Made by a program: the position numbers and the translations under genes. Of a stretch of 64,000 bases of DNA, positions 9,673 through 52,264 are shown one piece after another; the first letter of the stretch is position 1, and the number at the start of each line of letters is the position of its first letter. Source of the stretch: Escherichia phage vB_EcoM_VR25; sequence record NC_028925.1. One strand, 5' to 3'. The notes below the pieces were generated by a model. That model did not search any database. It was not told the origin of the DNA and saw only the letters and a list, made by a program, of their open reading frames with translations.

Positions 9673-9710
9673 TTGCTTTAAACCAATCAGTGTTATAATG
9701 GTTCTAGACC
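9673..9710 (+). promoter_or_regulatory. middle-promoter-like element (TTGCTTTA, 13 bp, TATAAT, GGTTCTAGACC) oriented antisense to the HNH gene
   Basis: plus-strand reading; same TATAATGGTTCTAGACC core as the minus-oriented copies at 44704 and 52228. Confidence 0.35.
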
Positions 9711-9745
9711 TTTTGTCCTTACCAATAACACTGACCGATAATAGA

Positions 9746-10420
9746 TTATTTTATTAATGTGTTAAGTCTTAGCTTAGTCATAAACGGATAACGTTCCAAC
9801 ATTGGCTTTACCCAGTATCGAGGATGCAATTCCTTTTTATATGCTAGGACCAACTCTCGAGCTTGCTCGACGGTATCAACTCCGAAGTTTTTACACATTT
9901 CTTGCCTATCTTTTTCCCACCGGCGCTTTCTCAATTCATCCTGAATCTCTTTATTTTTAAAATGTCCATTATTGCGAGAATGTTTTGTGCCCTTGGTTGG
10001 ACTGTAATGTCTTCCTTTGACAAACCCATCCGGAACATCTTCCCATGGAAATAGTTTTATCGATTTGACACCATTAGTAAAGTAAACTTTACCGGTTTGA
10101 CTTTTAGAAATATTGTCAGCGTGTCTACGTCTTAACCAGCCAAATAATTTATTATTACGTTTCAAATACTTGCTTGACTGACTCATAGATGTGGCGGCAA
10201 AACTTAAACCTGGATTTGTAGGATATATTTTAACCAATAGTTGATGGGCTACATAATGTTCCTCGGGAGTCAAATCGACTAGGTTATCAGGAGCATTTGA
10301 ACCACCCATACATTTCGGAATGATGTGATGAGATTCTTTATATGAAATCAGGACCCTGTTACGGGCCCTTTCAATTAACGATGAATATATAAACTGATAA
10401 TTCAAAGTGAATTTCTCCAT
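9746..10420 (-). CDS. free-standing HNH homing endonuclease
   Basis: ORF track 224 aa; HNH motif [29 protein letters not shown]; basic C-terminal half; inserted between genes 3 and 2, which are adjacent in T4. Confidence 0.75.
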
Positions 10421-11238
10421 ACTTTCTGTGAAGAAAATCTTTTGCCTTTTGAAAAAAACTGCTGAAGGGGAAGTAATACCACATTTGCCCAGTCGCTGGG
10501 CTTGATTTCAGTGATAGTACCTTTTATATTACCAGGTATATATGCTTTAATCATCTGGTCAGCCCCTTTAAATCCCTTCACCTTTGACCAATCAATCTTC
10601 AGATGAGTCTTGTTCGTAATCGTAGGAGTATTAGCATATTGCTTAAGAAGTTCCTCAAGGAACTCTTGACGCGCCTTCGGTGGAATATAGTGCAAGTTCA
10701 AACCATACATCAAATTGTGTTTGCCTAACCCAAGATAAATGATTAACGGATATTTGTCCCAGTATGGAAGAGTATCCTTATGCTTTGCATCATAGATATA
10801 AGCATAAATCTTACCTGGTTGAGGTTTAGCCGTTACGTGTCCTCTGACAGCTTTCTTAATTGTCTCTGCGAACCATCTGGCAGATTTGGTGTTGCTTGCA
10901 GCGCCTTCGTTAGCAATCTTATCTCTTATACTCTTTCTAAAGCTATTCACCATTATCAGTTGGCGTTCAGTCTTCGTAAGTTTACCAGCAGGTTTCTTTT
11001 TGAGTTTGGATACTTTATAAGCAGTCTGAATTCTCGAATGATATCTTGACATGCTTTTGGTAAAGGTTGAATAGTTGATTCCTTTCTCTTCAGCAAACTT
11101 TTTCGAGGTCATTCCCTTTTCTTTTGCTGTATAAAATTCAACCCCTATCTCAACCCATTGTTGTTCGGATTTACTGGGTTTTGGACCTGGTTTATCTGCA
11201 GATTCATTGATAAATGTAAAAATACTCATCCTTTCCAT
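10402..11238 (-). CDS. 2: gp2 DNA end-protector protein
   Basis: ORF track 278 aa (T4 gp2 about 274 aa); conserved position. Confidence 0.7.
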
Positions 11239-11675
11239 CCTAATTTTTTCAGTGAGTTTTCAGTGATTATCCTGAACGTTATACCCATTTTATCTGCCGT
11301 AGATTGTGCAGCTTTCCATTTGTCCGAGTTAACAGCCCAGGTATACATCTCGTTAATAAATCTCTTTTTGCTCGCAGCGGTATTATTAACAGGTTTGGTT
11401 GGTGGTCTTGTTTCTTTTAATGGCTTAACTTCGAAAAAGAACTGTTGTCCTGTATCAAACTTAACCCAGAAATCCATATAATACCTGCGCTTTTTACCAT
11501 CGGCATTGCTAAAGTAAGGGATGATAACAGTCTCAGAACCCCATTGAACAACGTTCGGATGGTTGTCGAGCCATCTCATAAGCCATGCCTCCCAGCTTGA
11601 CCTGTATTGTATTTTCTTCCAGTCGCCCTTATATTTTTCTATATTAGTGGGCTTAAATTTCCCGGAGTATGCCAT
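11226..11675 (-). CDS. 4: gp4 head completion protein
   Basis: ORF track 149 aa; MAYSGKF... resembles T4 gp4 (about 150 aa). Confidence 0.8.
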
Positions 11676-11723
11676 ATAGCCTCCTAATAAATATTGATAT
11701 ACTTATTTATAAATGGAGGCTTT

Positions 11724-12326
11724 ATGCTTTTTTCATTTTTTAACCCAATTGATTATGATGCTAAAACAATCAGAAAAAACCCTGCATCATTGACGAAAGA
11801 AGATGTCTTAAGCATTCCAATGACAGACATCTTCAGAAATTATCGTGCTTACTTTGATAAGGTCGCGGTCAATTATACACCAAAAACCTATTACATCGCC
11901 GGAGCTCCGAGACCTGAAGAATTATCATATCAGCTTTACGGTAACACGCAGCTATATTGGGTTCTCCTTATGCTCAATGATATCTATGACCCTTATTATG
12001 GTTGGCTTTGTACCCAAGAAGCATCGTATCAAGCATCAATTCAGAAATATTCGAATGTCGGGGGTAATCAGGTCCTTTATCATGTGAATGAAGATGGTGA
12101 AAAGTTCTGGAACCTTGTTTCTTATCCTGATAATCCATACACATGGTACGATAAAGGTGACAAGAACAAATTATATCCACAATACGAAGGTCCATTAGCT
12201 GCAGTGGATATCTATGAAGATGCTATCCGTAAAAATGAATACAAACGCGAAATAAAAATAATCGACCCGGAAGATATTGAGTCATTTATTTCCGCACTTA
12301 TCCGTGAAATGGAGAAGGCGCTATGA
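11724..12326 (+). CDS. 53: gp53 baseplate wedge protein
   Basis: ORF track 11694..12326 trimmed to ATG at 11724 preceded by GGAGG; divergent from gene 4 as in T4. Confidence 0.8.
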   Translation: MLFSFFNPIDYDAKTIRKNPASLTKEDVLSIPMTDIFRNYRAYFDKVAVNYTPKTYYIAGAPRPEELSYQLYGNTQLYWVLLMLNDIYDPYYGWLCTQEASYQASIQKYSNVGGNQVLYHVNEDGEKFWNLVSYPDNPYTWYDKGDKNKLYPQYEGPLAAVDIYEDAIRKNEYKREIKIIDPEDIESFISALIREMEKAL

Positions 12327-14053
12327 TTAATATGTCAGATAGTGTAAGTTGGTTCGTCGGTGTAGTTGAAGACCGAATGGACCCGCTTCAGCAAGGCCGT
12401 GTGCGCGTTCGCGTGTGGGGTATGCATCCATATGAGAAAGCACAAGGTCCTGTGAAAGGTATCAGAACCGAAGACCTCCCTTGGATGTCTGTATTGATGC
12501 CAACATCATCTGCGTCGGTTTCTGGAATTCAAACCGCAATGACTGGTATGGTACCAGGGACTCAGGTATATGGTCACTTTTTGGACAAGTGGAAGCTCAA
12601 CGGTCTTGTCATTGGTACATATGGTTCAGCCTCAAGACAAAAAGCAAATCCTAACGAAGGCTTCTCTGACCCCACGGGACAATATCCACTTTATGTCGGT
12701 AATGATGCTGCAGCGCTTAACCGTGGGGGTGAAGTTGGTTATGATGCTACTTCGAACGTAATCCAGGATGCAAACCTTGACCTTGGTATTAACCCTGATG
12801 GCCTTGATTTAAGCCAGGTTAAGCCAGATGATAATCCCAATTTCACAATTGAAAATATGCTTCACCGCGATGAAGGTCTTCGTTTGAAAGTATATTGGGA
12901 CTCCGAAGGATATCCGACTGTCGGGATTGGTCACCTTATTACCCCGCAAAAAATTCGTAATATGGAACAAATCAACTTGATATTATCAAAGCAAGTTGAC
13001 CGTGAAGTTAAAGGAAACCCAGGCACAATATCCATGGATGAAGCTTCGAAGTTATTCCAGGAAGACCTTAAGAAAGTACAAAAAGATATTGGCAGTACAA
13101 ATGCGCTTTTATCCCAGGTTTATAACCAAGAAAACAGGTCAAGACAAATGGCCCTGGAAAACATGGCATTCCAAATGGGTGTAGGTGGACTGGCTAAGTT
13201 TCGTAGCATGCTAGGCAATATGCTTGTTAAAGATTATAAAGCCGCTTTCGATAACGCAAGGGATTCGGTTTGGTTCCAACAGACAAAAGGCCGGGCATCA
13301 AGGGTATCGATGATTATCTTGACTGGCAACATGGAGTCATATGGCATCATGGCTCCAAAAGAAGGTGGACGTGCTCGCATGACTACTTTTGCCGAACCAA
13401 GAGAAGCCGACCCGGCTGACCCGTGGACTCCAGAAGATACAAGGATTCTGTTTAAAGAACCAGAATCAAGTTACAAAGGCGAATATCCTTACATACAGAC
13501 AATGCAAACCGAAGGCGGTCACATTCAGGAATTCGATAACACTCCTGGACAAGAACGTTATCGACTGATTCACCCGACTGGCTCCTATGAGGAAGTTGCT
13601 CCGGATGGTCGTAAGACTTCAAAGACAGTAGCCGATGGTTATTATATGACCCAGGGCGATTCGAGCACTTATGTTGGCGGTAATAATAAAGTCAACGTCG
13701 GCGGCGATGAAACCTATTACAATATGGCTAACGTTCGCAGACAAACCGATGGAAACGAAAGCATTCATATCAGAGGGAATGAAACCAAAACTATCGAAGG
13801 TGACGGTACAATTATTGTCAAAGGTAATGTAAGTATTCTGGTCGAAGGTAATGCTGAAATAACTGTTAAAGGTGATGCAAAAACTCTTGTCGAAGGTAAC
13901 CATGATTATACAGTAAATGGTAATGTCAAATGGTCCGTTAATGGAAACGTTGATATGACTGTAGCTGGCAACTGGTCCGAGACTATGGCTTCAATGAGTT
14001 CTATTGCATCCGGACAATATACTATTGATGGTTCGAGGATTGACATTGGCTAA
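12323..14053 (+). CDS. 5: gp5 baseplate hub / cell-puncturing protein with lysozyme domain
   Basis: ORF track 576 aa; WFVGVVED...GRVRVRV N-terminus, lysozyme-like DEGLRLKVYWDSEGYPTVGIGHL, C-terminal VxGxxxxx beta-helix repeats. Confidence 0.9.
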   Translation: MINMSDSVSWFVGVVEDRMDPLQQGRVRVRVWGMHPYEKAQGPVKGIRTEDLPWMSVLMPTSSASVSGIQTAMTGMVPGTQVYGHFLDKWKLNGLVIGTYGSASRQKANPNEGFSDPTGQYPLYVGNDAAALNRGGEVGYDATSNVIQDANLDLGINPDGLDLSQVKPDDNPNFTIENMLHRDEGLRLKVYWDSEGYPTVGIGHLITPQKIRNMEQINLILSKQVDREVKGNPGTISMDEASKLFQEDLKKVQKDIGSTNALLSQVYNQENRSRQMALENMAFQMGVGGLAKFRSMLGNMLVKDYKAAFDNARDSVWFQQTKGRASRVSMIILTGNMESYGIMAPKEGGRARMTTFAEPREADPADPWTPEDTRILFKEPESSYKGEYPYIQTMQTEGGHIQEFDNTPGQERYRLIHPTGSYEEVAPDGRKTSKTVADGYYMTQGDSSTYVGGNNKVNVGGDETYYNMANVRRQTDGNESIHIRGNETKTIEGDGTIIVKGNVSILVEGNAEITVKGDAKTLVEGNHDYTVNGNVKWSVNGNVDMTVAGNWSETMASMSSIASGQYTIDGSRIDIG

Positions 14054-14063
14054 TATCCTACCA

Positions 14064-14585
14064 ATGAGCGCTGATTTAGGAGACTCCATGGAAGGAGCCT
14101 CAATCGATGTTACGTTTACAGCTCAATTAGAAACAAACGAAACATTAGTCGAAATAAATATAACTGAATATGAGGCCACCCCTGGCGTTAATGTTGAGGG
14201 CAATCATCTTTATGGTGTTTATGAATCCGTGTTCGGATTTGCAGATGATGCGCTTAAATATCGGCTTAACGATGAATTTAAAACTGCTGGTTCATGGGAA
14301 GACCTTCCTGCGGATAAGAGTACTCAATTGTATCTCTGGAGGGCCCCAGCGAGCCTCCAGAAGGTCTTTTCATACACAGTAACCCTAACCTATGACTTTC
14401 AAGAAGAGAGCTCTGGTGGAGACACAGGGAACTCTGGTGGCAGTAATAGTCGTGCAGGTAATGAGACTAACCCACCGCCAGCTCCAGTAAGGAAGACAAT
14501 GACAAAAGTTTACACAAAAACTATCGTCGGTAACTGGAGCCGGTGGGCAGATAAATTGCGTTCATACGTATACGCGAGGGATTAA
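14064..14585 (+). CDS. 5.1: gp5.1-like hypothetical protein
   Basis: ORF track 14004..14585 trimmed to the first ATG after the gene 5 stop; position between 5 and 5.4. Confidence 0.5.
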
Positions 14586-14878
14586 TGGCTGGATTAAGTT
14601 TTAATCAATGTGTTACAGCAGGTCACGAAGCATGGCCGCCGACTGTAATCAATGCAACTCAAGGTAAAGTATTCACCGGGGGAATTCCTGTGTTAGTTGC
14701 CGGGGACCCTATTACCGAGCATACCGAAATTAAAAAACCATATGAAACCCACGGTGGAGTAACACAACCAAGAACTCCGAAGGTATTTGTTACCGGTAAG
14801 AAAGCTGTTCAAATGGCGGACCCGATTTCATGTGGTGATACTGTGGCTCAAGCCTCATCAAAAGTCTTTATAAAATAG
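14585..14878 (+). CDS. 5.4: gp5.4 PAAR-like spike-tip protein
   Basis: ORF track 97 aa, same length as T4 gp5.4; position after 5.1. Confidence 0.7.
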
Positions 14879-14886
14879 GAAATAAA

Positions 14887-16845: not shown

Positions 16846-16873
16846 GCCTCTCCGGAGGCTTTAAGGAATCTTA

Positions 16874-20966: not shown

Positions 20967-20969
20967 CTA

Positions 20970-32538: not shown

Positions 32539-34518
32539 ATGGCTTTATTATCCCCGGGCATTGAGCTCAAAGAAACAACGGTCCAAAGCACTGTTGTTCG
32601 TAACGCGACGGGTCGTGCGGCGCTGGTTGGTAAATTCCAGTGGGGCCCAGCTTTCCAGGTAACTCAGATTACAAACGAAGTGGAACTTGTTGATTTGTTT
32701 GGTGGCCCGAACAATATCACAGCTGACTACTTTATGAGTGGAATGAACTTCCTTCAATATGGTAATGACCTGCGCACAGTTCGTGTAGTTAACCGCGACC
32801 ACGCTAAAAACGCATCCCCGGTAGCAGGGAACATCGAAAGTACAATCGCTACTGCAGGTTCTAACTATGCAGTCGGTGACGTTATCCAGGTTAAACACAA
32901 CCAGACTGTTGTTGAAACTTCTGGCCGTATTACCAAGGTTGACGTTGACGGGAAAATCCTCGCGGTCTTCATTCCGTCTGACAAAATTATTGCCTTTGCA
33001 AAATCTGTAAACCAGTATCCGGACCTTGGTCCAGCATGGACTGCTGAAATCCTGACCACTTCTTCAGGTGTGTCTGGTACGATTACCCTTGGGAAAATTG
33101 TCACCGATTCTGGTATCCTGTTGACCGAAGCAGAAAATAGCGAAGAAGCTATTACCTCTTTGGAATTCCAGGCTTCCCTGCAGAAATATGCAATGCCAGG
33201 TGTTGTTGCTCTTTATCCTGGTGAAATCGGTTCGACTCTCGAAGTTGAAATCGTTTCCAAAGCTGCATATGATGTTGGCGCTTCGAAGATGCTTGACATT
33301 TATCCGAATGGTGGTTCCCGTGCTTCTGTTGCTCGTGCGGTGTTTAACTATGGTCCGCAGACTGACGACCAGTATGCAATCATCGTTCGTCGTGATGGCG
33401 CTATCGTTGAAAACGTTGTTCTGTCAACCAAAGAAGGCGATAAAGACGTTTACGGCAACAACATTTATCTGGACGACTACTTTGCAAAAGGTACTTCCAA
33501 TTACATCTATGCAACTTCTCTGAACTGGCCAAAAGGCTTTGCAGGCATCATCAATCTGATGGGTGGTATTTCTGCAAACGACCAGGTTACTGCTGGTGAT
33601 TTGATGCAAGGTTGGGACCTGTTTGCTGACCGTGAAGCACTGCATATTAACCTGCTTATCGCTGGTGCAGTAGCTGGTGAAGGTGATGCAACCGCTTCAA
33701 CTGTTCAGAAGCACGTGGTTTCTATCGCTGACGAACGTCAGGATTGCCTGGCATTTATCTCTCCACCAAAAGGCCTTCTGGTTAACGTTCCTCTGACCCG
33801 TGCAGTGGATAACCTGATTGACTGGCGTACAGGTGGCGGCTCATTCGATACTGATAACATGAATATCAGCACGACTTATGCAGCGATTGATGGCAACTAT
33901 AAATATCAGTATGATAAATATAACGACGTTAACCGTTGGGTTCCTCTGGCAGCTGATATGGCTGGTCTGTGTGCTCGTACTGATGATGTTTCTCAGCCTT
34001 GGATGTCTCCGGCCGGTTATAACCGTGGTCAGATTCTGAACGTACTGAAATTGGCTATCGAACCTCGTCAGACCCAACGTGACCGCATGTATCAAGAAGC
34101 TATCAACCCGGTTGTTGGTTTCGCAGGTGGTGATGGTTTTGTTCTTTACGGTGATAAGACTGCAACTAAAGTTCCATCTCCGATGGACCATATCAACGTT
34201 CGTCGTCTTACGAATATGCTGAAGAAAAATATCGGTGACGCATCCAAATATAAACTGTTTGAGCTTAACGATAACTTCACTCGTGCATCATTCCGTATGG
34301 AAACTTCTCAATACTTGGATGGTATTCGTGCGCTCGGTGGCATTTATGAAGGTCGTGTGGTTTGTGATACTACCAACAACACCCCGTCGGTCATAGACCG
34401 AAATGAGTTTGTTGCTAGCATTTATTTTAAACCTGCGCGCAGCATCAACTACATCACACTTAATTTCGTAGCCACAAGCACTGGTGCTGATTTTGATGAG
34501 CTGATTGGGCCGCAATAA
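32539..34518 (+). CDS. 18: gp18 contractile tail sheath
   Basis: ORF track 659 aa (T4 659). Confidence 0.92.
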   Translation: MALLSPGIELKETTVQSTVVRNATGRAALVGKFQWGPAFQVTQITNEVELVDLFGGPNNITADYFMSGMNFLQYGNDLRTVRVVNRDHAKNASPVAGNIESTIATAGSNYAVGDVIQVKHNQTVVETSGRITKVDVDGKILAVFIPSDKIIAFAKSVNQYPDLGPAWTAEILTTSSGVSGTITLGKIVTDSGILLTEAENSEEAITSLEFQASLQKYAMPGVVALYPGEIGSTLEVEIVSKAAYDVGASKMLDIYPNGGSRASVARAVFNYGPQTDDQYAIIVRRDGAIVENVVLSTKEGDKDVYGNNIYLDDYFAKGTSNYIYATSLNWPKGFAGIINLMGGISANDQVTAGDLMQGWDLFADREALHINLLIAGAVAGEGDATASTVQKHVVSIADERQDCLAFISPPKGLLVNVPLTRAVDNLIDWRTGGGSFDTDNMNISTTYAAIDGNYKYQYDKYNDVNRWVPLAADMAGLCARTDDVSQPWMSPAGYNRGQILNVLKLAIEPRQTQRDRMYQEAINPVVGFAGGDGFVLYGDKTATKVPSPMDHINVRRLTNMLKKNIGDASKYKLFELNDNFTRASFRMETSQYLDGIRALGGIYEGRVVCDTTNNTPSVIDRNEFVASIYFKPARSINYITLNFVATSTGADFDELIGPQ

Positions 34519-34551: not shown

Positions 34552-34602
34552 CCGTAGAACCATTATACAGTGTTATAAATAAAAGCATAATCGGTTCTAC
34601 GG
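34552..34602. promoter_or_regulatory. 10-bp perfect inverted repeat (CCGTAGAACC / GGTTCTACGG) with 31-nt loop containing TATAAATA and a minus-oriented MotA-box-like/TATAAT pair
   Basis: read directly in the gene 18-19 intergenic region. Confidence 0.4.
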
Positions 34603-40988: not shown

Positions 40989-40994
40989 AACTTT

Positions 40995-41002: not shown

Positions 41003-41027
41003 AAGTATATCACAAAAGGAAAGCGCA

Positions 41028-42308
41028 ATGGCAAAGATTAACGAACTGCTGCGCGAGTCAACTACCACTACCAGCAACTCCTTGGGCCGCCCGAATCTTG
41101 TTGCTTTGACCCGTGCTACAACCAAATTGATTTACCGCGATATTATCGCTGAACAACGTACTAACCAGCCAGTTGCGGCTCTGTACGGTGTTAAATATCT
41201 TACTCCTGATAATGAATTCAGTTTCCAGACTGGTGCTACTTATGGTGGTGAAGTCGGTTCTAAAGACCGTACAACTATTCCAGAATTAGCTACAGCTACT
41301 CAGCCTGTTGCTAAAGGCGAATATGTAAAATATCAAAATATCGTTTACAAAGCTCTGGTGGATAATCCATTTGCAACAACCACAGAAACAGTATTATCTG
41401 ATGTTCTACAGGAAGGTCTTATTGCATCGACTATTCGTTTAGTTCCTGATGCAGCGCATACCGAGAAATTTGAAGCCGGTGATGTTGAAATTAGTAACGC
41501 CGTGTTCCAGGTTAATAAATGGAATGCTCCTGTTAAATCCCGTAAATTGAAAACTGCACTGACTGTTGAACTTGCTCAGGATATGGAAGCAAACGGTTTT
41601 AATGCTCCTGCTTTCCTGGAAGACCTGCTTGCAACTACCATGGCAGACGAAATTAACAAAGATGTTCTGCAGTCTCTGATTACCGTTTCCAAGCGTTATA
41701 AAGTCACTGGCGTTTCTGATAAAGGTTTCATCGATTTGACATATGATTCAGCTCCAGAAGGCGCACGTAAACTATACGAACTGGTTTGCGAAATGAACTC
41801 TGAAATTCAGAAAACTACATCTTACTCTGGTACATTCGTTGTTGCCTCAAGTCGTGTGGCCGCGATGCTCGCCGGTTCCGGTTGGTTGAAACATAAACCT
41901 GAAGATGAACAATGGCTCCCGGAAACCGCGTACGGCTATTTGATTAATGGTCTTCCTGTATTCTGTGATGTTAACAGTCCATTGGATTATGTAACCGTTG
42001 GCGTTAAAGAAAATTACGGTGGAAACGAAGTCGTAGGCTCAATCTTCTATGCTCCTTATACCGAAGGCCTGGACTTAGATGATGAAGAACATGTAGGTGC
42101 GTTTAAGGTCATTGTGGACCCAGACAGCTTGCAGCCATCTATCTCCTTGATGGTTCGATATGCACTTTCAGCTAACCCTTACACCGTTGCTAAAGACGAC
42201 AAAGAAGCTCGTATTATCGATGCAACTAATATGGATTTAATGGCCGGCCAGAGCAACATGTCTTATCTGCTCGGTGTTAAACTTCCACCAATCATTTATG
42301 AGGCGTAA
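41028..42308 (+). CDS. 24: gp24 head vertex protein
   Basis: ORF track 426 aa; N-terminus MAKINELLRESTTT...GRPNLVALTRATTKLIY matches T4 gp24. Confidence 0.9.
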   Translation: MAKINELLRESTTTTSNSLGRPNLVALTRATTKLIYRDIIAEQRTNQPVAALYGVKYLTPDNEFSFQTGATYGGEVGSKDRTTIPELATATQPVAKGEYVKYQNIVYKALVDNPFATTTETVLSDVLQEGLIASTIRLVPDAAHTEKFEAGDVEISNAVFQVNKWNAPVKSRKLKTALTVELAQDMEANGFNAPAFLEDLLATTMADEINKDVLQSLITVSKRYKVTGVSDKGFIDLTYDSAPEGARKLYELVCEMNSEIQKTTSYSGTFVVASSRVAAMLAGSGWLKHKPEDEQWLPETAYGYLINGLPVFCDVNSPLDYVTVGVKENYGGNEVVGSIFYAPYTEGLDLDDEEHVGAFKVIVDPDSLQPSISLMVRYALSANPYTVAKDDKEARIIDATNMDLMAGQSNMSYLLGVKLPPIIYEA

Positions 42309-43592
42309 ATGCAAAAGATTAACGCACTAATTCACGAATCAACATTAACGGCGGCCAACCAGGTCGCCCGTCCTAATTTGCTTTCTTATACTCGGGCTAC
42401 GAATAAACGAATTTTTAAAGCTCTTGTGGCCGAACAGAAAACTACTCAGCCAGTCGCAGCGCTGTATGGCGTTCGTGTTCTGAACCCAGATGATAAAATG
42501 ACTTATCTTGGTGGAGCAACATTTGCAGGCCAGATTGGTATGTTCGAGCGTAAGAATATTCCAGAATTTACGAACAAAGACGAAGCTTATGCAGTCGGCA
42601 ACATGTTCCAGTTTGAAAGCATTGTATTCAAAGCTTTGGAAGCTTCTCCTTTTGCCGGGACCCTCGAAACTGATTTGGGTGAAGTTATTTCTGAAGCCAT
42701 TGCGGCTGGCCATATAAGAATGATGTCAGATGCGGCTTTCACTGATAAATTTGAACAAGGACATCCTGAAATTGCTGAAGCCGGTTTCCGTATTGATAAA
42801 TGGCAGACTGAAGTTAAATCCAGAAAACTGAAAACCTCTTTAACCGTTGAGCTTGCGCAAGACCTGGAAGCAAATGGTTTCGACGCAACAGATTTTATTG
42901 ATAATATCCTTGGTATTCAAATGGCAGAGGAAATTAATAAGGACGTACTGCAATCTTTAATTACCGTGAGTTCGCGTTTTAAAGTCCAGGGTGTTTCCGA
43001 AAAAGGTGTACTTAATCTTACTGATGCCGCTTATGATAATGCTCAGGACCGTGCTCGAACTCTGTATTATTATATGTGCGAAATGAATTCCGCAGTTCAA
43101 CGTCAGACTTCGTTCGCTGGTACATATGCAGTCGCTTCTTCCCGTTGTGCAGCTATTTTAGCAGCTTCTGGCTGGGTTGAGAAAAAGGAAGACCAAGATG
43201 AATTGGCCTATGGTGTTCTGAAGAACGGTTTGCCACTTTATGCAGATATGAATAGCCCGTGCGATTATGTTATTGTTGGTGTAAATGCTGATATGGGTGA
43301 AGGTCAGACAGTCGCATCTTTGTATTATGCGCCTTATACGGAAGGTCTTAGTGAAGTTGATGATGAGGGTGACACCTCGGTTGGGGAATTCAAGGTTATC
43401 GTTGACCCCGAAAGTTTACAGCCTACAGTTGCACTGTTAGCTCGTTATGCACTGACTGCAAACCCTTACACCGTTGCTAAAGACGATAAAGAAGCTCGCA
43501 TTATTGATGGAGCTGATATGGATAAGATGGCTAACCAAAGCCAATTGAGTTCTTATCTTGGTGTTAAACTTCCACCACTGGAAAAAGAATAA
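42309..43592 (+). CDS. gp24 paralog (second head vertex protein copy, tandem duplicate)
   Basis: ORF track 427 aa; collinear similarity to the preceding gene (MQKINALIHEST..., ...PYTVAKDDKEARIID...GVKLPP). Confidence 0.85.
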   Translation: MQKINALIHESTLTAANQVARPNLLSYTRATNKRIFKALVAEQKTTQPVAALYGVRVLNPDDKMTYLGGATFAGQIGMFERKNIPEFTNKDEAYAVGNMFQFESIVFKALEASPFAGTLETDLGEVISEAIAAGHIRMMSDAAFTDKFEQGHPEIAEAGFRIDKWQTEVKSRKLKTSLTVELAQDLEANGFDATDFIDNILGIQMAEEINKDVLQSLITVSSRFKVQGVSEKGVLNLTDAAYDNAQDRARTLYYYMCEMNSAVQRQTSFAGTYAVASSRCAAILAASGWVEKKEDQDELAYGVLKNGLPLYADMNSPCDYVIVGVNADMGEGQTVASLYYAPYTEGLSEVDDEGDTSVGEFKVIVDPESLQPTVALLARYALTANPYTVAKDDKEARIIDGADMDKMANQSQLSSYLGVKLPPLEKE

Positions 43593-43611
43593 GGGCCTTG
43601 CGGCCCTTTTT
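43593..43611. terminator. terminator hairpin GGGCC-UUGC-GGCCC plus U-run
   Basis: read directly between the gp24 paralog (+) and rnlB (-). Confidence 0.55.
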
Positions 43612-43612
43612 A

Positions 43613-44617
43613 TTAACTAATTAATGCAATCCAAACATGTCTTAATGTATCTCTTACATTTGCAATGAGTTGCTTTTTAACTTCAACAGGATTTTCCGTC
43701 TGGGTTAATTCAAGGCCTTCCCGACCTGCTTCTTCCAAAATATCTTGAACAGTCAAACCCATTACCTTTCCAAAATCCTTTGGCGTTACTTCCCCAATTT
43801 TACTGATAACATTGTTGATGCGGTTAACAGTCACATAATCAGTGAACTTCCATAAAATGTCCAGGTCTTCCTGGGACAACACAACAGCAGCCTTGATAGG
43901 CTTATCAGACTTTTTCTTTTCGCTGAATTTAGAGTTCTTACATTTAATCGCTACGCGCTCACCATTAGGTAACCAGGCCGGAGTATCAGGTTTAAGAACA
44001 TACCCTTCTGCAGTGAATACTTTACCTTCAACCTTTGCGTCAAAATCGGTGGTATTCGCGGTAGTCAAACCCGCATTATCTACTGTAAAATTGTAATCAG
44101 GAACCACAGAATCCAGGTCGTTAGGGAGCTTAATCAAGTCTTCAAAGCTACCCGTAGCCAGTCGTGGGGCAACCTTAAATTTATGGATAATACAGAAGGC
44201 TTCCATCAATGAATCAGTCAAAACAGATTCAGAGCCATCTTCCTTAGTAACGCGGATATCAAATACATAGAAATCTTTGTCACCATAATCAACATTCTTC
44301 TGGATACCCGCCCCGGCAAACTCACCATAAATTTGGTATGATTGATAATTAATATCCTGTAAAAGTCTCTGCACAGTTTTAATGGAATCTGCATAGTTCT
44401 TGAGTACAATTTCGTAGCCATAGAAATCTTCTGCAGGTAGGATAGGTCCAGTGCGTTTCGCACATGTCACATTGTCTTGTTCAATGATTAATGAAAAGTT
44501 GGTGCCATGAATTTTCTCACGCGCTACCCATTCACCGCTGGTGAAGCCTTGCAGGCGAATCTTTTCAATGAACTTGTTGTTATAGTGATTTTCAAGGCTG
44601 TTGTATTTCTTAAACAT
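43613..44617 (-). CDS. rnlB: RNA ligase 2
   Basis: ORF track 334 aa (T4 Rnl2 334); [13 protein letters not shown]... and nucleotidyltransferase motif KIHGTN. Confidence 0.9.
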
Positions 44618-44703
44618 AATCTCTCACTTTTGATGTTATAAATATCATTATAAATTATACCCTCTATACTTTCTTTCTCTGAAAGGAATTAATCGTATCG
44701 GAA

Positions 44704-44740
44704 GGTCTAGAACCATTATACCACAATTTTATTTGAAGCA
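44704..44740 (-). promoter_or_regulatory. middle-promoter-like element (MotA-box-like TGCTTCA, 13 bp, TATAAT, GGTTCTAGACC) upstream of rnlB
   Basis: minus-strand reading. Confidence 0.45.
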
Positions 44741-44746
44741 AAAAGG

Positions 44747-45010: not shown

Positions 45011-45210
45011 TTCTTCACCTTTTTGTTAAACAACCGCTTGCGGTATACGATTTTCTCTCGTGACTTGAACTTTTCTTTAGCTTGTTCAACATCAACCCAT
45101 GCCTTTGCCATTTCTTTAGCGGTCCCGCCTAATACCTTGGCGATTTCAATAAATGTCATACCAGTTTCATGCAGGAAATGTACTTTAACCTTATTCATAA
45201 CCATTCTCAT
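45007..45210 (-). CDS. hypothetical small basic protein
   Basis: ORF track 67 aa; start/stop overlap with the downstream gene. Confidence 0.4.
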   Translation of the reverse strand: MRMVMNKVKVHFLHETGMTFIEIAKVLGGTAKEMAKAWVDVEQAKEKFKSREKIVYRKRLFNKKVKK

Positions 45211-45347
45211 GTTGAGTTAGTGAAGCTATCTTAACATGGAATTTTTAACTTGTAAACAGGAGTTTTATGCCAGATATTCTTGAACGTAAAGATTTACTTT
45301 ACAACCGCCACTACTTTAATAAATATTAAATTAATAACGGAGGATTT

Positions 45348-46928: not shown

Positions 46929-46937
46929 GGAGCTTTA

Positions 46938-47801
46938 ATGGAACCGGTTAAAGCTGTGTTAGAGCCTGATGTAATAGATGTGGAATATGGTAATACATAC
47001 TCGGCTACTGTAACTCTGTCTCCTATAGAAAATATTCCAGATGGTTCCGTGATAAGATATGATTGGGTTGTTAATAACAAGTTCGTTGGTACGGGTGAAG
47101 CTACTCGTACCACCCAACCATCTCAGACCGGAAATTATGTATTATCATGTAGAGTATTCATTACTCCGCCTAATGAAAATACTGTAATGATAACAACTAA
47201 TAAATCATATGGGTATGTATATAAAAATTCCGATACAAGTCCAGTAGATGCAGAAATATTATATGATAACAAGATATACCAAATAGGAAGCAAAGTTAGA
47301 TTATTAGCCGTTGCCAATAACCCAGATACCAACTTTGTTAAAGGTATTATATGGAAGGATGCTGATGGTAAGATAATAGGTATAGGTCGGGAATATATCC
47401 ATACAATGCAATCAGAGTATGATATAGTTCGAGCTAAAGTTACAATGGATTCGCCTATAAGAGATGAATTTAGTAAGAACTTTACTATACATTTGTACGC
47501 TATAAATGTTCAAGAAGGAACATGTATAAGATATATTCATCCTTTAGACCACAGGGATGCAGGATTTATCTGGTGTGGTTGGTGGGTTATGGATGAAATC
47601 CAACGAGCGATAAAACTTGGGCTGGATTGGAAAAATCCAAAAGAGCTAGATTTAAATTACAAGTGTGATTTAGAGACATTAGCGTTATTGCTCAAGACAT
47701 ATCCTGAAGCCGAAGTTCAAGAATCAAGACACGGATATATAATAACCAGACTACAAATTGAGACTGGCGAAATATATAAAAAACCATATGAAGTAAAATA
47801 A
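46938..47801 (+). CDS. Hoc-like capsid decoration protein (second copy)
   Basis: ORF track 287 aa; C-terminal ...HPLDHRDAGFIWCGWWVMDEIQRAIK...YPEAEVQESRHGYII... parallels the capsid-binding C-terminus of the hoc product downstream. Confidence 0.7.
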   Translation: MEPVKAVLEPDVIDVEYGNTYSATVTLSPIENIPDGSVIRYDWVVNNKFVGTGEATRTTQPSQTGNYVLSCRVFITPPNENTVMITTNKSYGYVYKNSDTSPVDAEILYDNKIYQIGSKVRLLAVANNPDTNFVKGIIWKDADGKIIGIGREYIHTMQSEYDIVRAKVTMDSPIRDEFSKNFTIHLYAINVQEGTCIRYIHPLDHRDAGFIWCGWWVMDEIQRAIKLGLDWKNPKELDLNYKCDLETLALLLKTYPEAEVQESRHGYIITRLQIETGEIYKKPYEVK

Positions 47802-47804
47802 AAG

Positions 47805-47822
47805 GGCCTTGCGGCCCTTTAT
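47805..47822. terminator. terminator hairpin GGGCC-UUGC-GGCCC between convergent genes
   Basis: read directly. Confidence 0.5.
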
Positions 47823-47824
47823 CA

Positions 47825-48928
47825 TTAATAGACGTAATCGTATATAATACCAGCTTCCAATGCCGAACGGTGGACGATACGACCGTTACGAGATTCCTGT
47901 ACATCAACTTCCGGGTAATCACTAAGCATTTTGGCTAATACCGCCAGATGACAATAATATGGTGTATCCTCTTTAGTGGCTTTTTTCCAATCTGTACTTT
48001 CAGATGTTAATTTCTGAATAGCGTCCATAACCCACCAGCCACACCAAATATACGCAGTATTACGGACAGGAAGTGGATGTACATAAATTAAAGGGCATTC
48101 TTCTGGAATAACAGGCTCTGCTTCTTCCACAGTAACGGACTTAGTACCTGATTTAACTGAATTTGTAAAGCCTGTTTGTGATGCGGTAACTTCACAAGTA
48201 TATGTCTTCAAGCCTTCAGTGGATTCCGTTATTGCTCTTGTTGCTTCTGTTGAGTTGTCGTCCCATTTATATGCAAGAGTCGCACCAGGGATAGCAGGGG
48301 ACACAGAAGCTGTCAAATTGAATGGAACATCAACCGTTGCAGTAGACGGGCCTGAAATCTCAACAGTGAACTCAGGAAATGTATTGTTTTCGACCGTAAC
48401 AACTACTGCCTCAGGATTAATAACTTGATTGTCATAATCTGCCGCAGAAACGGTAATTTGGCAAGTTAAAGAAACTGGTCCTGCGTCAGTAGCAGCACGA
48501 GTAATATCTTTAGTAATTTCACCAGTAGACCACAAATATGCTATTGTAGCTCCACCGGGTTCACCTGTTACATTAGCCGAAGCGTTATATTCCTGACCAA
48601 CTTTAACAGTAGGAGTGGAAGTTGTTAATGTTGCTGTTGCAGCCATAGTCTTATTATTAACCGTAATGGTTGTTTGAGCCTCTGCCGTTTCAGGCTCTCC
48701 TTCTTCCGGCGTTGTGGTGGCAACAACTTTAATTACTTTTGAACCTGCTGGGCCAGCTGCAATATAATCCATAGTAGCAATAACAGAATCTTGTGGAACA
48801 TCATCAACGGTCCATACAAAAGATTCGGTACCAGCGACAGCGGCTCCAGCCCCAGTAGCAGTAAAATTAGTTGTTGCACCTATAACCGCTGTAGGTGTTA
48901 AAGGGGCAATTGATACAGTATAAGCCAT
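47825..48928 (-). CDS. hoc: Hoc, highly immunogenic outer capsid protein
   Basis: ORF track 367 aa (T4 about 376); C-terminus ...CPLIYVHP...AYIWCGWWVMD...YPEVDVQESRNGRIVH... matches T4 Hoc; minus orientation as in T4. Confidence 0.8.
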   Translation of the reverse strand: MAYTVSIAPLTPTAVIGATTNFTATGAGAAVAGTESFVWTVDDVPQDSVIATMDYIAAGPAGSKVIKVVATTTPEEGEPETAEAQTTITVNNKTMAATATLTTSTPTVKVGQEYNASANVTGEPGGATIAYLWSTGEITKDITRAATDAGPVSLTCQITVSAADYDNQVINPEAVVVTVENNTFPEFTVEISGPSTATVDVPFNLTASVSPAIPGATLAYKWDDNSTEATRAITESTEGLKTYTCEVTASQTGFTNSVKSGTKSVTVEEAEPVIPEECPLIYVHPLPVRNTAYIWCGWWVMDAIQKLTSESTDWKKATKEDTPYYCHLAVLAKMLSDYPEVDVQESRNGRIVHRSALEAGIIYDYVY

Positions 48929-48939
48929 AAAACCTCCAA

Positions 48940-48958
48940 GGGCCGAAGCCCTTTTGTT
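48940..48958. terminator. GC hairpin GGGC-N4-GCCC (UUCG loop on the minus strand)
   Basis: read directly between inh end and hoc start; may be a terminator or a stabilising 5' hairpin. Confidence 0.35.
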
Positions 48959-49637
48959 AATTTAAACGAATAAAAGATGAGTTACGTGTTTCACGAATAA
49001 GAATGGAACCGTCACGATTGATATAGTAAATCAAACTAAACAATGTTTGGTGTGCGCTTGCATGAGTAAAAGAAGTAGGGCGTTCTTTCCAGTCCGGGGT
49101 CTCTTTAATCCACTGGTAAATCCACCAAGGGAGAGTACAATATCCAGGAGCTTTGCCCAGCATAAGCAGATTGGGGCTAAAATTTTTAGGCAGTGTAAAT
49201 TTAGGAGTTTCAGCTTCGATGATTTGAGCGACAGCTTCTTCAAAGTCTTCGGAAACAAACGGCACTTCAATTTCAACGAGTTTAACTTCTGATTCAGGAA
49301 CAACTTCCTGGGTAACTTCGACTACTTCAACGGGTGCTTCTGGAGCATCAAACAAAAGAACAGCTTCAGGTTTAGCTGATTCTTCACCTTCAAACTTACC
49401 ACCTGATAATTCATCATCGGCATTAATAAGGTCGGTGATGCTTAAGCCTTCGTTATCGTCCGGCATAGGCATGTCAGCAAATGCTTGCAGCCCGGCTTCC
49501 AGGTCAATCAACATATTATCGAAAGTTTTTGTTTTCTTAACATCAACACCAAGCGATGATGCATATTCAGCTAATTTTTCTTTGGCTTCTTTTTTCTCGA
49601 GGACACGAATTTCCTCAATATAGTTCTTATCAATCAT
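48957..49637 (-). CDS. inh: Inh, inhibitor of prohead protease
   Basis: ORF track 226 aa (T4 Inh 226); position next to hoc. Confidence 0.7.
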   Translation of the reverse strand: MIDKNYIEEIRVLEKKEAKEKLAEYASSLGVDVKKTKTFDNMLIDLEAGLQAFADMPMPDDNEGLSITDLINADDELSGGKFEGEESAKPEAVLLFDAPEAPVEVVEVTQEVVPESEVKLVEIEVPFVSEDFEEAVAQIIEAETPKFTLPKNFSPNLLMLGKAPGYCTLPWWIYQWIKETPDWKERPTSFTHASAHQTLFSLIYYINRDGSILIRETRNSSFIRLN

Positions 49638-49655
49638 AATGAACCTCGGTTATTG

Positions 49656-49663
49656 TATAAATA
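49656..49663 (+). promoter_or_regulatory. late promoter TATAAATA
   Basis: exact octamer upstream of uvsW. Confidence 0.5.
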
Positions 49664-49691
49664 TAGATATATTTATTACCTTGGAATCATC

Positions 49692-51191
49692 ATGGATATC
49701 AAAATCAACTTTTTAAATTTTAGTCATGTACATGTTGAATGTGAAGATAGTATCTTCTATGAACTCCGTGACTATTTCAGTTTTGAAGCCGAAAACTATC
49801 GGTTTAACCCTAAATTCAGAGCGGGAGTTTGGGACGGACGTATCCGTCTCCTGGATTATAACCGTAAATTACCGTACGGCTTAGTTAACCAGATTAAAAA
49901 ATTCGCTGACCAGTTTGGTTATTCATTTTGGATTGACCCTCAAATCACCGAGAAAGAGGAAATCTCCCGTGTGGATTTCGATAAATGGGTCGAGTCAAAA
50001 GAAATCTATTCAGGCCATACCAAGATTACTCCCCATTGGTACCAAACAGACGCCGTATACGACGGTCTGGTCAACAGAAGAAAGATATTGAACTTACCTA
50101 CGTCTGCAGGTAAAAGCCTCATCCAGGCGCTCCTGGCGCGATATTATCTCGAGAACTATGAAGGCAAGGTTCTTATCCTTGTACCTACAACCGCGCTCGT
50201 TGACCAGATGATTAACGATTTCGTCGATTACAGATTGTTCCCTCGAGAAGCCTGTCTCGGTATCCGCTCCGGAACTAAACGTGATTCGGATGCAATGATT
50301 TATGTGTCTACTTATCAGACGGCAGTAAAACAACCTAAAGAATGGTTTTCACAGTTCGGTCAGTTTATGAATGATGAATGTCATATGGCTACTGGTAAAT
50401 CCATTTCGACCGTTATCGAAGGCCTGACTAATTGTATGTTTAAATTTGGTCTCTCTGGTTCTCTCCGTGATGGCAAAGCAAACCTTATGCAATATATGGG
50501 TCTGTTTGGTGATATCTTTAAACCCGTATCCACATCCCAATTAATGGATGAAGGCCAAGTTACTGACCTTAAGATAAATAGTATTTTCCTTCGTTACCCT
50601 GATGAATTCACCATTAAAATGAAAGGCAAATCTTATCAAGATGAAATCAAGGTAATTACAAAAGCTACGCGTAGAAATAAATGGGTAACAAACCTTGCAC
50701 TCAAGCTTGCTAAAAAAGATGAAAACGTCTTTTTGATGTTTAAGAATATCGAGCACGGTAAATCGATGTTTGAAATGCTTAAGGAAGCTGGTCATGAGAA
50801 TGTGTATTATGTTTCCGGGGAAGTTGATACAGAAACACGTAACGCATTAAAGGTCATGGCAGAGAATGGAAAGGGAATTATCGTTGTAGCTTCATATGGT
50901 GTATTCTCGACGGGAATTTCCGTTAAAAACCTCCATCATATTATTTTCGCTCACCCGGTCAAGTCAAAGGTAATTGTACTCCAGACAATTGGTCGTGTAC
51001 TTCGAAAACATGAATCCAAATCGACCGCAAACGTGTGGGACATCGTGGACGATATGGGGGTCAAACCCAAATCAGCAAACGCTAAAAAGAAATATGTTCA
51101 CTTGAACTTTGCACTGAAACACGCATTAGAACGTATTCAGCGGTATGCAGACGAAAAATTCAATTATATCATTAAACAGGTGGAAATATAA
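49692..51191 (+). CDS. uvsW: UvsW RNA-DNA / DNA helicase
   Basis: ORF track 49653..51191 trimmed to MDIKINF... (T4 UvsW starts MDIKVHF); helicase motif I PTSAGKS and DECH box. Confidence 0.88.
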   Translation: MDIKINFLNFSHVHVECEDSIFYELRDYFSFEAENYRFNPKFRAGVWDGRIRLLDYNRKLPYGLVNQIKKFADQFGYSFWIDPQITEKEEISRVDFDKWVESKEIYSGHTKITPHWYQTDAVYDGLVNRRKILNLPTSAGKSLIQALLARYYLENYEGKVLILVPTTALVDQMINDFVDYRLFPREACLGIRSGTKRDSDAMIYVSTYQTAVKQPKEWFSQFGQFMNDECHMATGKSISTVIEGLTNCMFKFGLSGSLRDGKANLMQYMGLFGDIFKPVSTSQLMDEGQVTDLKINSIFLRYPDEFTIKMKGKSYQDEIKVITKATRRNKWVTNLALKLAKKDENVFLMFKNIEHGKSMFEMLKEAGHENVYYVSGEVDTETRNALKVMAENGKGIIVVASYGVFSTGISVKNLHHIIFAHPVKSKVIVLQTIGRVLRKHESKSTANVWDIVDDMGVKPKSANAKKKYVHLNFALKHALERIQRYADEKFNYIIKQVEI

Positions 51192-51418
51192 TGAAGTCAT
51201 TTGAAGAAATTATGTATGAAGCGGCAATTGAAAGCTTCATGTCTAAGATAGGTTCTTGTCAGACCATGGACGGTCTGAAGGAGCTGGAAGGTTATTATAA
51301 AAAGCGCAGCAAAGAAGCTGAATTGAAAGATTCCGATGATATCAGTGTTCGCGATGCTCTAGCGGGTAAACGTGCCGAGCTTGAGGATATGGACGACGAA
51401 GAAGACGAAGATTTCTAA
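51191..51418 (+). CDS. uvsW.1: UvsW.1 small acidic protein
   Basis: ORF track 75 aa; overlaps the uvsW stop. Confidence 0.65.
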   Translation: MKSFEEIMYEAAIESFMSKIGSCQTMDGLKELEGYYKKRSKEAELKDSDDISVRDALAGKRAELEDMDDEEDEDF

Positions 51419-51420
51419 AT

Positions 51421-51449
51421 AAAAAGGCCCCAACCAAAAAGGAAGGGGC
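51421..51449 (-). terminator. rho-independent terminator (minus): GCCCC-N13-GGGGC then U5
   Basis: read directly downstream of the small minus-strand ORFs that follow uvsY. Confidence 0.45.
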
Positions 51450-51475
51450 AAAACCAAAATGGTTAACAACACTAG

Positions 51476-51643
51476 CTAAATTAAAAGTTGGGTCTCGTTC
51501 AGTTGCTCTTGTGTATTTTCCGTAACTGGCAAACTCTGAACATAATTATAACAGGCGCCCGGATGCACCGGACCTTGGTCTGTATCCACAACCAATGCAG
51601 AATCGATTGGAGTTTTACAGACAACACAAATCTTATCTGACAT
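51476..51643 (-). CDS. small Cys-containing protein (uvsY.-2-like position), 55 aa
   Basis: hand-translated MSDKICVVCKTPIDSALVVDTDQGPVHPGACYNYVQ...; GGAG RBS; below the ORF-track size cut-off. Confidence 0.4.
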   Translation of the reverse strand: MSDKICVVCKTPIDSALVVDTDQGPVHPGACYNYVQSLPVTENTQEQLNETQLLI

Positions 51644-51675
51644 GATTGTCTCCTCAGTTAAACTTACATATCTAT

Positions 51676-51780
51676 TTAGTGCTTCTTTAATGCGGCATTA
51701 ATAAACTGTTGAAATTCACGCATCTTCTCTTCAGAAGGTTTTAATGGTTTTCTAATATTTGCTTTACGACAACCCATCAT
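51676..51780 (-). CDS. very small basic ORF (34 aa), possibly uvsY.-1-like
   Basis: hand-translated MMGCRKANIRKPLKPSEEKMREFQQFINAALKKH; ATG overlaps the uvsY stop (ATGA). Confidence 0.25.
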   Translation of the reverse strand: MMGCRKANIRKPLKPSEEKMREFQQFINAALKKH

Positions 51781-52211
51781 TTACCTGCCTCAAATTGTCT
51801 TATTTCTAACATATGTTTAAGCGCGAAACTTCGTGACTTAACACCATCTAATGCAGCGCTACAGAAGTCCTGGAGCAGTGCCCAATATTGAATTGAAGTA
51901 TCAATCTTAAGCACGCTTGAATCTGCAGCCATGACTGTTTTCAATTCTGACTTCTCGTACACATCCATGCATACTTCTTCCCCTGGGTCACCCCTTCCTG
52001 TATAATGGTCAAGCCTCTTTTTAAGAGCTGTTTTCTTCTGAATCTCAAGACGCATTATTTCTTTCTTGCAGTTAGTATACAATCTCAACCATTTGCTATG
52101 CAACAAAACGTTGTTTTGTGTTTCATATTGAATTTGTGTACCATCAATTTTTAAATCTGCATCCAACTCATCCTGAAATACTTCCAACTTATATTCAATC
52201 TCTGTTTTCAT
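51777..52211 (-). CDS. uvsY: UvsY recombination mediator
   Basis: ORF track 51777..52241 trimmed to ATG at 52209-52211 because the upstream ATG lies inside the -10; C-terminus ...YWALLQDFCSAALDGVKSRSFALKHM...FEAGK matches T4 UvsY. Confidence 0.85.
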   Translation of the reverse strand: MKTEIEYKLEVFQDELDADLKIDGTQIQYETQNNVLLHSKWLRLYTNCKKEIMRLEIQKKTALKKRLDHYTGRGDPGEEVCMDVYEKSELKTVMAADSSVLKIDTSIQYWALLQDFCSAALDGVKSRSFALKHMLEIRQFEAGK

Positions 52212-52227
52212 AATGTATCCAATGTAA

Positions 52228-52264
52228 GGGTCTAGAACCATTATACAGCCATAAAATTAAAGCA
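52228..52264 (-). promoter_or_regulatory. middle promoter candidate for uvsY (MotA-box-like TGCTTTA, 12 bp, TATAAT, GGTTCTAGACC)
   Basis: minus-strand reading; T4 uvsY is known to have a MotA-dependent middle promoter. Confidence 0.5.

Follow-up and report, generated by a model that had tools for sequence, protein, structure and literature searches.

Conserved MotA-type middle promoters with a common start block in sense and antisense positions of a Gaprivervirus late region, and their possible relation to the R-loop origins of T4

The stretch of DNA analysed here (64 kb, called the window below) belongs to Escherichia phage vB_EcoM_VR25 (NC_028925.1) and was placed by megablast in Gaprivervirus, among the VR7/VR20/VR26/SP18-like T4 relatives of Escherichia coli, with 97% identity to VR26 near rnlB and 97.5% identity to phage P479 near gene 3. 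Its open reading frame (ORF) map, read together with the VR26 annotation, gives the usual gene order of the T4 late region. The first-pass annotation had pointed to four copies of a promoter-like element followed by a common downstream block, and all four were found at the places indicated. The recurrence of this element with its shared block in the window is real, and its copies are the following:

9674-9710, plus strand: site 1, with the box TGCTTTA (9674-9680), a 13-bp spacer, TGT-TATAAT (9691-9699), the block GGTTCTAGACC (9700-9710) and the predicted start A at 9706.
52229-52264, minus strand: site 2, with the box TGCTTTA (52264-52258), a 12-bp spacer, TATAAT (52245-52240), the block (52239-52229) and the predicted start A at 52233.
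44704-44740, minus strand: site 3, with the box TGCTTCA (44740-44734), a 13-bp spacer, TGG-TATAAT ending at 44715, the block (44714-44704) and the predicted start A at 44708.
34552-34587, minus strand: site 4, with the imperfect box TGCTTTT (34587-34581), a 13-bp spacer, TATAAT (34567-34562), GGTTCTACGG (34561-34552) and the predicted start A at 34555.

The core of the element is a 17-mer, TATAATGGTTCTAGACC, present in three exact copies (9694-9710 on the plus strand, 44720-44704 and 52245-52229 on the minus strand), and no other match with three mismatches or fewer occurs in the window. By shuffling, 0.18 copies are expected by chance, and three matches were reached in none of 100 shuffles. 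Each exact copy is preceded by a TGCTT[TC]A box and a spacer of 12-13 bp. The fourth copy (34567, minus strand) reads TATAATGGTTCTACGG and has 13 of the 17 positions in common with the 17-mer. When the three exact copies are compared pairwise, they are 100% identical from -12 to +5, with 17-50% identity in the spacer and 37-43% from +6 to +40. Since identity is confined to -12..+5, these copies represent a short block that was selectively retained and not a piece of a longer duplication.

The consensus of T4 middle promoters is (a/t)3TGCTTtA, 12 +/- 1 bp, TAtaaT (PMC2988021). In the window, the MotA box (a/t)(a/t)(a/t)TGCTTtA lies near -30 at all sites, with A/T-rich bases 5' of the box at sites 1-3 and the last position off consensus at site 4; the distance from the box to the -10 element is 13, 12, 13 and 13 bp at sites 1, 2, 3 and 4 respectively, and the -10 element is TATAAT in all four cases. 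Other MotA-type matches of the window are devoid of the block, for example at 5327 (minus strand, upstream of the tRNA region) and 62518 (minus strand). The motA and asiA genes lie outside the 64-kb window and both are encoded by VR26, the closest complete relative (about 97% identity over the segments compared). Taken together with the synteny between the uvsY copy and the mapped T4 PuvsY, these data are in agreement with the earlier proposal of MotA-type middle promoters in sense and antisense orientation.

To place the block relative to the transcription start, three T4 promoters with mapped starts were used, PuvsY (115371), PnrdC.7 (53325) and P34i (153011), as given in the review by Hinton (2010) that lists 58 middle promoters (PMC2988021). 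In all three the start is an A located seven nt after TATAAT, so the block corresponds to positions -6 to +5 of the promoter, and the starts listed above for the four sites were predicted by transferring this rule through alignment. The block would then consist of a discriminator, GGTTCT, of the start A (the A of TCTAGA) and of GACC. The whole block had been proposed to form the 5' end of the transcripts; this stands for AGACC, the first five bases, and the remainder is discriminator, upstream of the start. Because the start site splits the block, the likeness of GGTTCTAGACC to the tRNA T-arm/B-box consensus was judged coincidental. A dimeric operator at the TCTAGA palindrome was likewise rejected as unlikely, the palindrome not being kept in other lineages (TCTAAG in T4, TTTAAG or TTCACG in some lineages). 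A start context favouring capping by nicotinamide adenine dinucleotide was set aside too, as its consensus has purines at -2/-1, where the block has pyrimidines.

The genes around the four sites are the following:

9061-9660, minus strand: gp3 (ORF map and VR26 annotation).
9746-10420, minus strand: HNH homing endonuclease gene (PHROGs phrog_655, E = 6e-56).
Minus strand: gp2 and gp4 (ORF map and VR26 annotation).
Plus strand: gp53 through gp24 (ORF map and VR26 annotation).
43613-44617, minus strand: rnlB.
51777-52211, minus strand: uvsY, with its ATG at 52211.

Two sites face a gene in the sense direction: site 2 is the sense promoter of uvsY and the positional ortholog of T4 PuvsY, which is oriF, and site 3 is the sense promoter of rnlB, with a leader of 91 nt. 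The predicted start of site 1 falls in the intergenic region between gp3 and HNH-gp2, and its transcript would be antisense to the HNH gene and to genes 2 and 4, without a credible downstream ORF. At site 4 the start falls in the gp18-gp19 intergenic spacer and the transcript would be antisense to gene 18. The element had been described as antisense to the 3' end of gene 18: the direction is right, but the element itself lies in the spacer (gene 18 ends at 34518) and the 3' end is entered only after about 37 nt. As a side observation, the HNH gene sits between the site-1 promoter and gene 2, with an insertion boundary about 40 bp past the predicted start; it is present in P479, TH22, UPEC07 and VR7 and absent from VR26, VR20, SP18 and others.

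For the comparison with other T4-like phages, the whole T4 and VR26 genomes were assembled and orthologous loci were gathered from IMG/VR. VR20 and VR26 contain exactly three exact copies of TATAATGGTTCTAGACC each, and all three are unchanged in VR7, a different species with flanks 84-92% identical. The downstream block, earlier called invariant, deserves this name within Gaprivervirus (window, VR20, VR26, VR7), whereas other genera have related variants. The gene 3/2 spacer site, on the plus strand and antisense to genes 2 and 4, was found at 15 of 15 loci, down to 54% gp3 identity; its members belong to T4 (75968-75999, plus strand, TATAAT GGGTCTAAGTCC), the window, JS98-like phages (GGTCCTAGGTCT) and four further lineages, and it also occurs in phages without the HNH gene. 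A plus-strand site in the srd/modA spacer, antisense to modA, is shared by T4 (11866-11896, GAATCTAAGTCC), VR26 (GGTTCTAAGGTC) and JS98 (GAATCAAGGACT). The gp18/gp19 spacer site, antisense to gene 18, is present in the window, VR20, VR26 (GGGTCTAAGCTA), JS98-like phages (GGTTTTAGGTTC) and one further lineage (GACTTCAGGTCT), and no counterpart of this promoter was found in T4. An additional site, internal to gene 34 and antisense to it, is common to T4, VR26 (TATAAT GGTCCCAGAGCG) and JS98 (TATAAT GGTTCCATAAGG). The antisense contexts noted at first hold: antisense copies are kept at the same positions in three genera.

The sense copies are also shared. The uvsY-upstream site is found in T4, JS98-like phages and Gaprivervirus; the rnlB-upstream site occurs in Gaprivervirus, JS98-like phages (GGGTCTAGGTCC) and several other lineages, T4 PrnlB being unrelated. 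Outside these loci, sense members are T4 PnrdC.7 (GGTTCTAAGCCC), its VR26 ortholog (GGTTCTGACC) and, in VR26 as well as JS98-like phages, a cd.3-upstream site (GGGTCTAGGTCC); a further one is a promoter internal to gene 49 (GAATCTGA). The 56 distinct sequences compared agree in the box, in a G at -13, in the -10 element and in the block, and vary in the spacer and the downstream region; position +3 is a G (1.4 bits) although the search pattern left it unconstrained. Purifying selection on functional promoters would be expected to leave such a pattern, with box, -10 element and block retained and spacers variable, and this is most telling for the copies that face no gene. The promoter identity and the conservation of these probable MotA-dependent elements are well supported. 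A degenerate scan of IMG/VR returned T4-like matches mixed with chance matches and contributed little. A direct repeat of the discriminator past the start (GGTYYT-A(N)-GGTYYT), seen by eye in many JS98-like and other members, was set aside, being absent from the main block of the window.

Around the gp18/gp19 site, an extra ORF ('gp19.1') lies between gp18 and gp19 in VR26 (KP007362, 98158-98841), and the window has none. The antisense promoter of VR26 remains on the gene-18 side; its start region is a different one (GGGTCTAAGCTA), and a GGGGA/TCCCC hairpin follows after about 45 nt. Both antisense copies of the window are in addition accompanied by a perfect inverted repeat:

9687-9734: 10-bp perfect inverted repeat at site 1, arms TCAGTGTTAT (9687-9696) and ATAACACTGA (9725-9734).
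34552-34602: 10-bp perfect inverted repeat at site 4, arms 34552-34561 and 34593-34602 (CCGTAGAACC / GGTTCTACGG).

The first repeat encloses the end of the -10 element, the block and the first 19 transcribed bases; in the second, the block is one of the arms, and the MotA box and the -10 element are in the loop. Both repeats sit in intercistronic spacers of late operons (gene 2 to 3, gene 18 to 19), and on the late mRNA they would form hairpins with loops of 28-31 nt. These hairpins may affect the stability or the processing of the late message independently of any promoter.

The presence of identical 17-mers at three loci could also result from a mobile or recombining promoter cassette, similar to the PeSL and PmSL elements, that recombination or gene conversion has recently spread; shared descent, and not function, would then account for the identical blocks. 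Conserved promoter cassettes that mediate shuffling, including versions with a Mot box, are known in T4-like phages (PMC4122927), and some relatives, but not others, have acquired a homing endonuclease gene about 40 bp past site 1. As in the case of the PeSL/PmSL motifs, the window elements recur in one genome and are more similar within than between lineages. However, in PeSLs the stem-loop precedes an early promoter, the 3' end is formed by a ribosome-binding site with a start codon, and the genes flanked are variable ones in hyperplastic regions. The window elements, by contrast, are syntenic, all four occupy conserved parts of the genome (late-gene or core regions), and two of the four face no gene. 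The inverted repeats found at sites 1 and 4 surround the promoter core, and no stem-loop was found just upstream of the promoters of sites 2 and 3. Furthermore, the identity ends sharply at -12 and +5 between unrelated spacers and flanks, and the synteny in T4, JS98-like phages and Gaprivervirus indicates an ancient element and not a recent insertion. We consider this origin very improbable.

A second possibility is that the block reflects promoter strength only, as a core, independent of a -35 element, that suits the AsiA-bound E. coli RNA polymerase best (TGn, TATAAT, a discriminator with GG for sigma region 1.2, and a start at a pyrimidine-purine step), the antisense copies being by-products or roadblocks. 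Such an optimum is in agreement with the narrow range of the variants, all within one or two changes of GG(G/T)TCTA(A/G)G(T)CC, with the common polymerase of phages that all infect enterobacteria, with the existence of sense members, and with the early promoters of the same phages, which also favour TATAAT followed by G, with the start at an A 7 nt further on. It leaves unexplained the syntenic conservation of antisense promoters over three genera, as well as the exact identity of non-orthologous sites over 17-21 nt within a lineage (TCTAAGTCC three times in T4, TCTAGACC three times in Gaprivervirus, GGGTCTAGGTCCT twice in JS98-like phages). We know of no established polymerase contact at positions +3 to +5, which also counts against strength as the sole explanation, and we regard it as distinctly unlikely. 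The lineage-specific cores are the following: TGGTATAATG..TCTAAGTCC at three T4 sites (two identical over 21 nt, the third differing at two positions), 17 nt identical at three non-orthologous sites in Gaprivervirus, and 19 nt common to the rnlB and cd.3 sites in JS98-like phages. This within-lineage identity could be due to drift around one polymerase optimum combined with short-tract gene conversion, or to co-variation with a phage factor.

The relation of these elements to T4 middle promoters was then considered. Generic MotA/AsiA middle promoters of T4 have the MotA box, the spacing and the sigma-70 -10 element in common with the window elements; they differ in that most of the 58 listed promoters have A/T-rich discriminators and a start region that is not conserved, and in that all the listed ones are located on the early strand. 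A perfect TATAAT with a G directly after it is found in only seven of the 58, the two R-loop origins among them (hypergeometric p = 0.013); the narrower pattern G[AG]N-YYY-A, defined post hoc, is found in three of the 58 (p = 0.002). On the basis of their sequence, promoters with a G-rich discriminator and start form a distinct subclass that contains both known R-loop origins. Two T4 members on the plus strand (NC_000866, starts at about 11,897 and 76,000), antisense to modA and to genes 2/4 respectively, share TATAATG..TCTAAGTCC with oriF. Both are missing from the 58-promoter list (PMC2988021), whose entries are all on the early strand, and from the annotation of the two T4 records, a description elsewhere being possible. 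Nothing relevant came up when the open literature was searched for the exact strings of the block.

The two R-loop origins are annotated explicitly in the T4 record, as 'oriF (oriuvsY); primer RNA is same as transcript for gene uvsY' at the uvsY promoter and as 'oriG (ori34); primer RNA is opposite direction of adjacent gene 34' inside gene 34. According to the review by Kreuzer and Brister (PMC3016281), each consists of a MotA-dependent middle promoter and an A+T-rich unwinding element, and a transcript persisting as an R-loop primes leading-strand synthesis; the same review states that no sequence motif is common to the T4 origins. In our comparison, the oriF promoter reads TGCTTCA-13-TATAAT GAATCTAAGTCC and the oriG promoter TGCTTCA-13-TATAAT GGTCCCAGAGAG. 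Since the subclass includes oriF and also oriG, which is antisense, there is a concrete reason why promoters of this type can face the 'wrong way'.

Positional orthology with oriF concerns site 2 only, where the order gene 25, promoter, uvsY is the same as in T4. Both promoters have a MotA box, a 12-13 bp spacer, TATAAT, a discriminator beginning with G and an A start 7 nt downstream, and their start regions are related (GAATCTAAGTCC in T4, GGTTCTAGACC in the window, 4 of 12 aligned positions differing with a one-base gap counted). In contrast to oriF, the region downstream of site 2 is not demonstrably an unwinding element, and origin activity is known for T4 only. P34i/oriG, an antisense non-coding middle promoter in a late gene (gene 34), is a precedent for sites 1 and 4 and belongs to the same subclass (TATAAT GGTCCCAGAG), with conservation in VR26 and JS98; it differs by its location within coding sequence and outside the window, whereas the window copies are intergenic and carry the TCTAGACC-type block. 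No T4 origin has been defined at the places that correspond to sites 1, 3 and 4, the T4 ortholog of site 1 being 3.4 kb from oriE. More generally, the T4 block sites other than oriF and oriG (11.9, 53.3 and 76.0 kb) lie 4.9, 5.7 and 3.4 kb from oriA (16.8 kb), oriC (59 kb) and oriE (79.4 kb). Under random placement, this nearness has p = 0.037 for any origin and p = 0.002 for three different ones with F and G left aside, with a threshold set post hoc and an approximate position for oriC ('rI.-1 near oriC'), and it is suggestive only.

The nature of the transcripts was approached from their downstream regions. Over the first 120 nt, the four transcripts have no excess of structure relative to shuffles (z from -0.7 to +0.6), and no Rfam family matches them; a structured small RNA was ruled out by this shuffle-like folding and absent match. 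None of four candidate ORFs downstream of the antisense promoters has a PHROG match, which led us to discard hidden protein genes, and short terminated transcripts were discarded in the same way, no convincing intrinsic terminator being found close downstream. The lack of ORF match, of Rfam family and of excess structure fits a transcript whose role is neither coding nor folding. At an R-loop origin, an A+T-rich unwinding element would be expected within about 50-100 bp downstream; from +1 to +60, A+T accounts for 0.63-0.72 of the bases at the four sites, the value of the window as a whole being 0.59.

Taken together, these results lead us to propose, as the probable explanation, that the four elements are members of a conserved subclass of MotA/AsiA middle promoters, of which the uvsY copy would also serve as an R-loop origin and the antisense copies would produce primer or R-loop transcripts. 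MotA and AsiA would activate all four promoters through sigma appropriation, on a core made of a MotA box near -30, a perfect and often TGn-extended TATAAT, and a G-rich GG(T/G)TCT-A(+1)-(A/G)G.. start region, here GGTTCT-A-GACC. Our best guess for the conservation of the block is that contacts of sigma region 1.2 and of the polymerase core at the discriminator and start would provide a strong promoter without need of a -35 element. The uvsY copy would drive uvsY, and the same transcript would form the R-loop that primes origin-dependent leading-strand synthesis; by orthology with T4 oriF, an origin function is likely for this copy. The rnlB copy would be an ordinary sense promoter of the subclass. 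In the gp3/gp2 and gp18/gp19 spacers, the antisense copies would yield non-coding transcripts, most likely as primer or R-loop transcripts in late-gene regions, as for oriG, and next most likely for antisense interference with the overlapped genes; the origin reading of these two copies, drawn by analogy, is reasonable but unproven. The analysis shows the sequence architecture, the synteny, the conservation and the presence of both T4 R-loop origins in the subclass, whereas the MotA dependence and the start sites in this phage, any R-loop or origin activity of the four copies and the cause of block conservation are inferred.

Several observations weigh against an origin function of the subclass. 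It also holds ordinary sense promoters (rnlB, PnrdC.7 and its VR26 ortholog, the cd.3-upstream site), so the block by itself cannot specify an origin. Downstream A+T content and nearest-neighbour duplex stability differ little between the T4 block sites and other middle promoters (p = 0.04-0.37), and the purine content of the window antisense RNAs is unremarkable (0.43-0.50); sequence alone neither supports nor excludes an unwinding element or a special R-loop propensity. PnrdC.7 is transcribed away from oriC, which weakens the argument from origin proximity, and the oriA promoter P56/69 is devoid of the block. To our knowledge, no origin besides oriF and oriG came out of the plasmid screens of the 1980s, a mild argument against further autonomous origins. 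Finally, oriE depends on an early promoter (PMC3016281).

A stronger form of the proposal would make the block the mark of dedicated 'primer' promoters. The gene 3/2, gp18/19 and srd/modA sites would then be R-loop origins, overlooked or, at low resolution, lumped into oriE, oriA and oriC, whose firing is coupled to late transcription. A phage factor that recognises the block, or a mechanistic need common to all sites for capturing the R-loop at the start, would then explain why the block is identical within a lineage. The primer RNAs would pair with the non-transcribed strand of late genes, and the primer-template junctions would load the gp45 clamp in the polarity that late promoters need. 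This loading step leans on the known polarity rule for the T4 late enhancer. We hold this stronger form to be doubtful; if it is true, origin firing would be coupled to late transcription.

The antisense copies could instead be cis-antisense regulators, middle-time transcription from sites 1 and 4 lowering or delaying the expression of genes 2/4, the HNH gene and gene 18 by RNA pairing or interference. This would give a defined promoter source to the classical 'anti-late RNA', and the srd/modA copy of relatives would shut off the early gene modA at middle times. The geometry agrees, the transcripts of sites 1 and 4 being complementary to the mRNA of the opposite strand, which is an observation on geometry only. 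Every non-coding member faces genes of another temporal class, the positions are kept across genera, long antisense RNAs are possible because no terminator lies close downstream, and 22 antisense start sites are reported in a T4 study based on differential RNA sequencing (dRNA-seq; bioRxiv 10.1101/2024.04.04.588121). However, late genes are silent at middle times and offer little to repress at that stage; the sole characterised antisense member, T4 P34i, is documented as an origin and not as a regulator of gene 34 (PMC3016281); and the core shared with the sense uvsY and rnlB promoters is left unexplained. We therefore think regulation in cis unlikely as the main role.

Coming back to the proposed promoter subclass, its interest is that both molecularly defined R-loop origins fall in a small recognisable set with further conserved members facing no gene. 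It provides a short list of candidate sites in T4 (about 11,897 and 76,000 on the plus strand, 53,325 on the minus strand), to which the gp18/19 spacer of JS98 and VR7 is added, and a public dRNA-seq data set for T4 (GEO GSE255091) offers a means to confirm the two plus-strand promoters absent from the list. Should the antisense copies be no more than regulators or strong promoters, they would still represent a conserved promoter set apparently missing from published T4 lists, and a clear example of promoter-core homogenisation within phage lineages.

Two further features of the window concern its gene content. Gene 24 (capsid vertex) is present as tandem paralogs at 41028-42308 and 42309-43592 on the plus strand, named vertex protein I and II in the VR26 and VR7 annotation, and T4 has one such gene. 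Two tRNA genes were detected with Rfam at 4961-5033 and 5171-5241 on the minus strand, and one tRNA (Met) is annotated in the matching region of VR26.

Inverted repeats were also observed at early-type promoters (-35 element GTGTAC/GTTTAC, TATAAT), where the arms flank the -10 element and place it in the loop. Such repeats occur in the window (6431-6380, minus strand), in VR26 (7190, 167244, 137222 and 169076, minus strand) and in T4 (7191, minus strand), in record coordinates for the two latter phages. They differ from the stem-loop described for PeSLs, which lies upstream of the promoter. The window repeat reads ATGGGATA-gtgTATAAT-TATCCCAT and that of T4 GGGACC-agagTATAAT-GGTCCC; the arms differ between promoters yet stay complementary, which looks like covariation.

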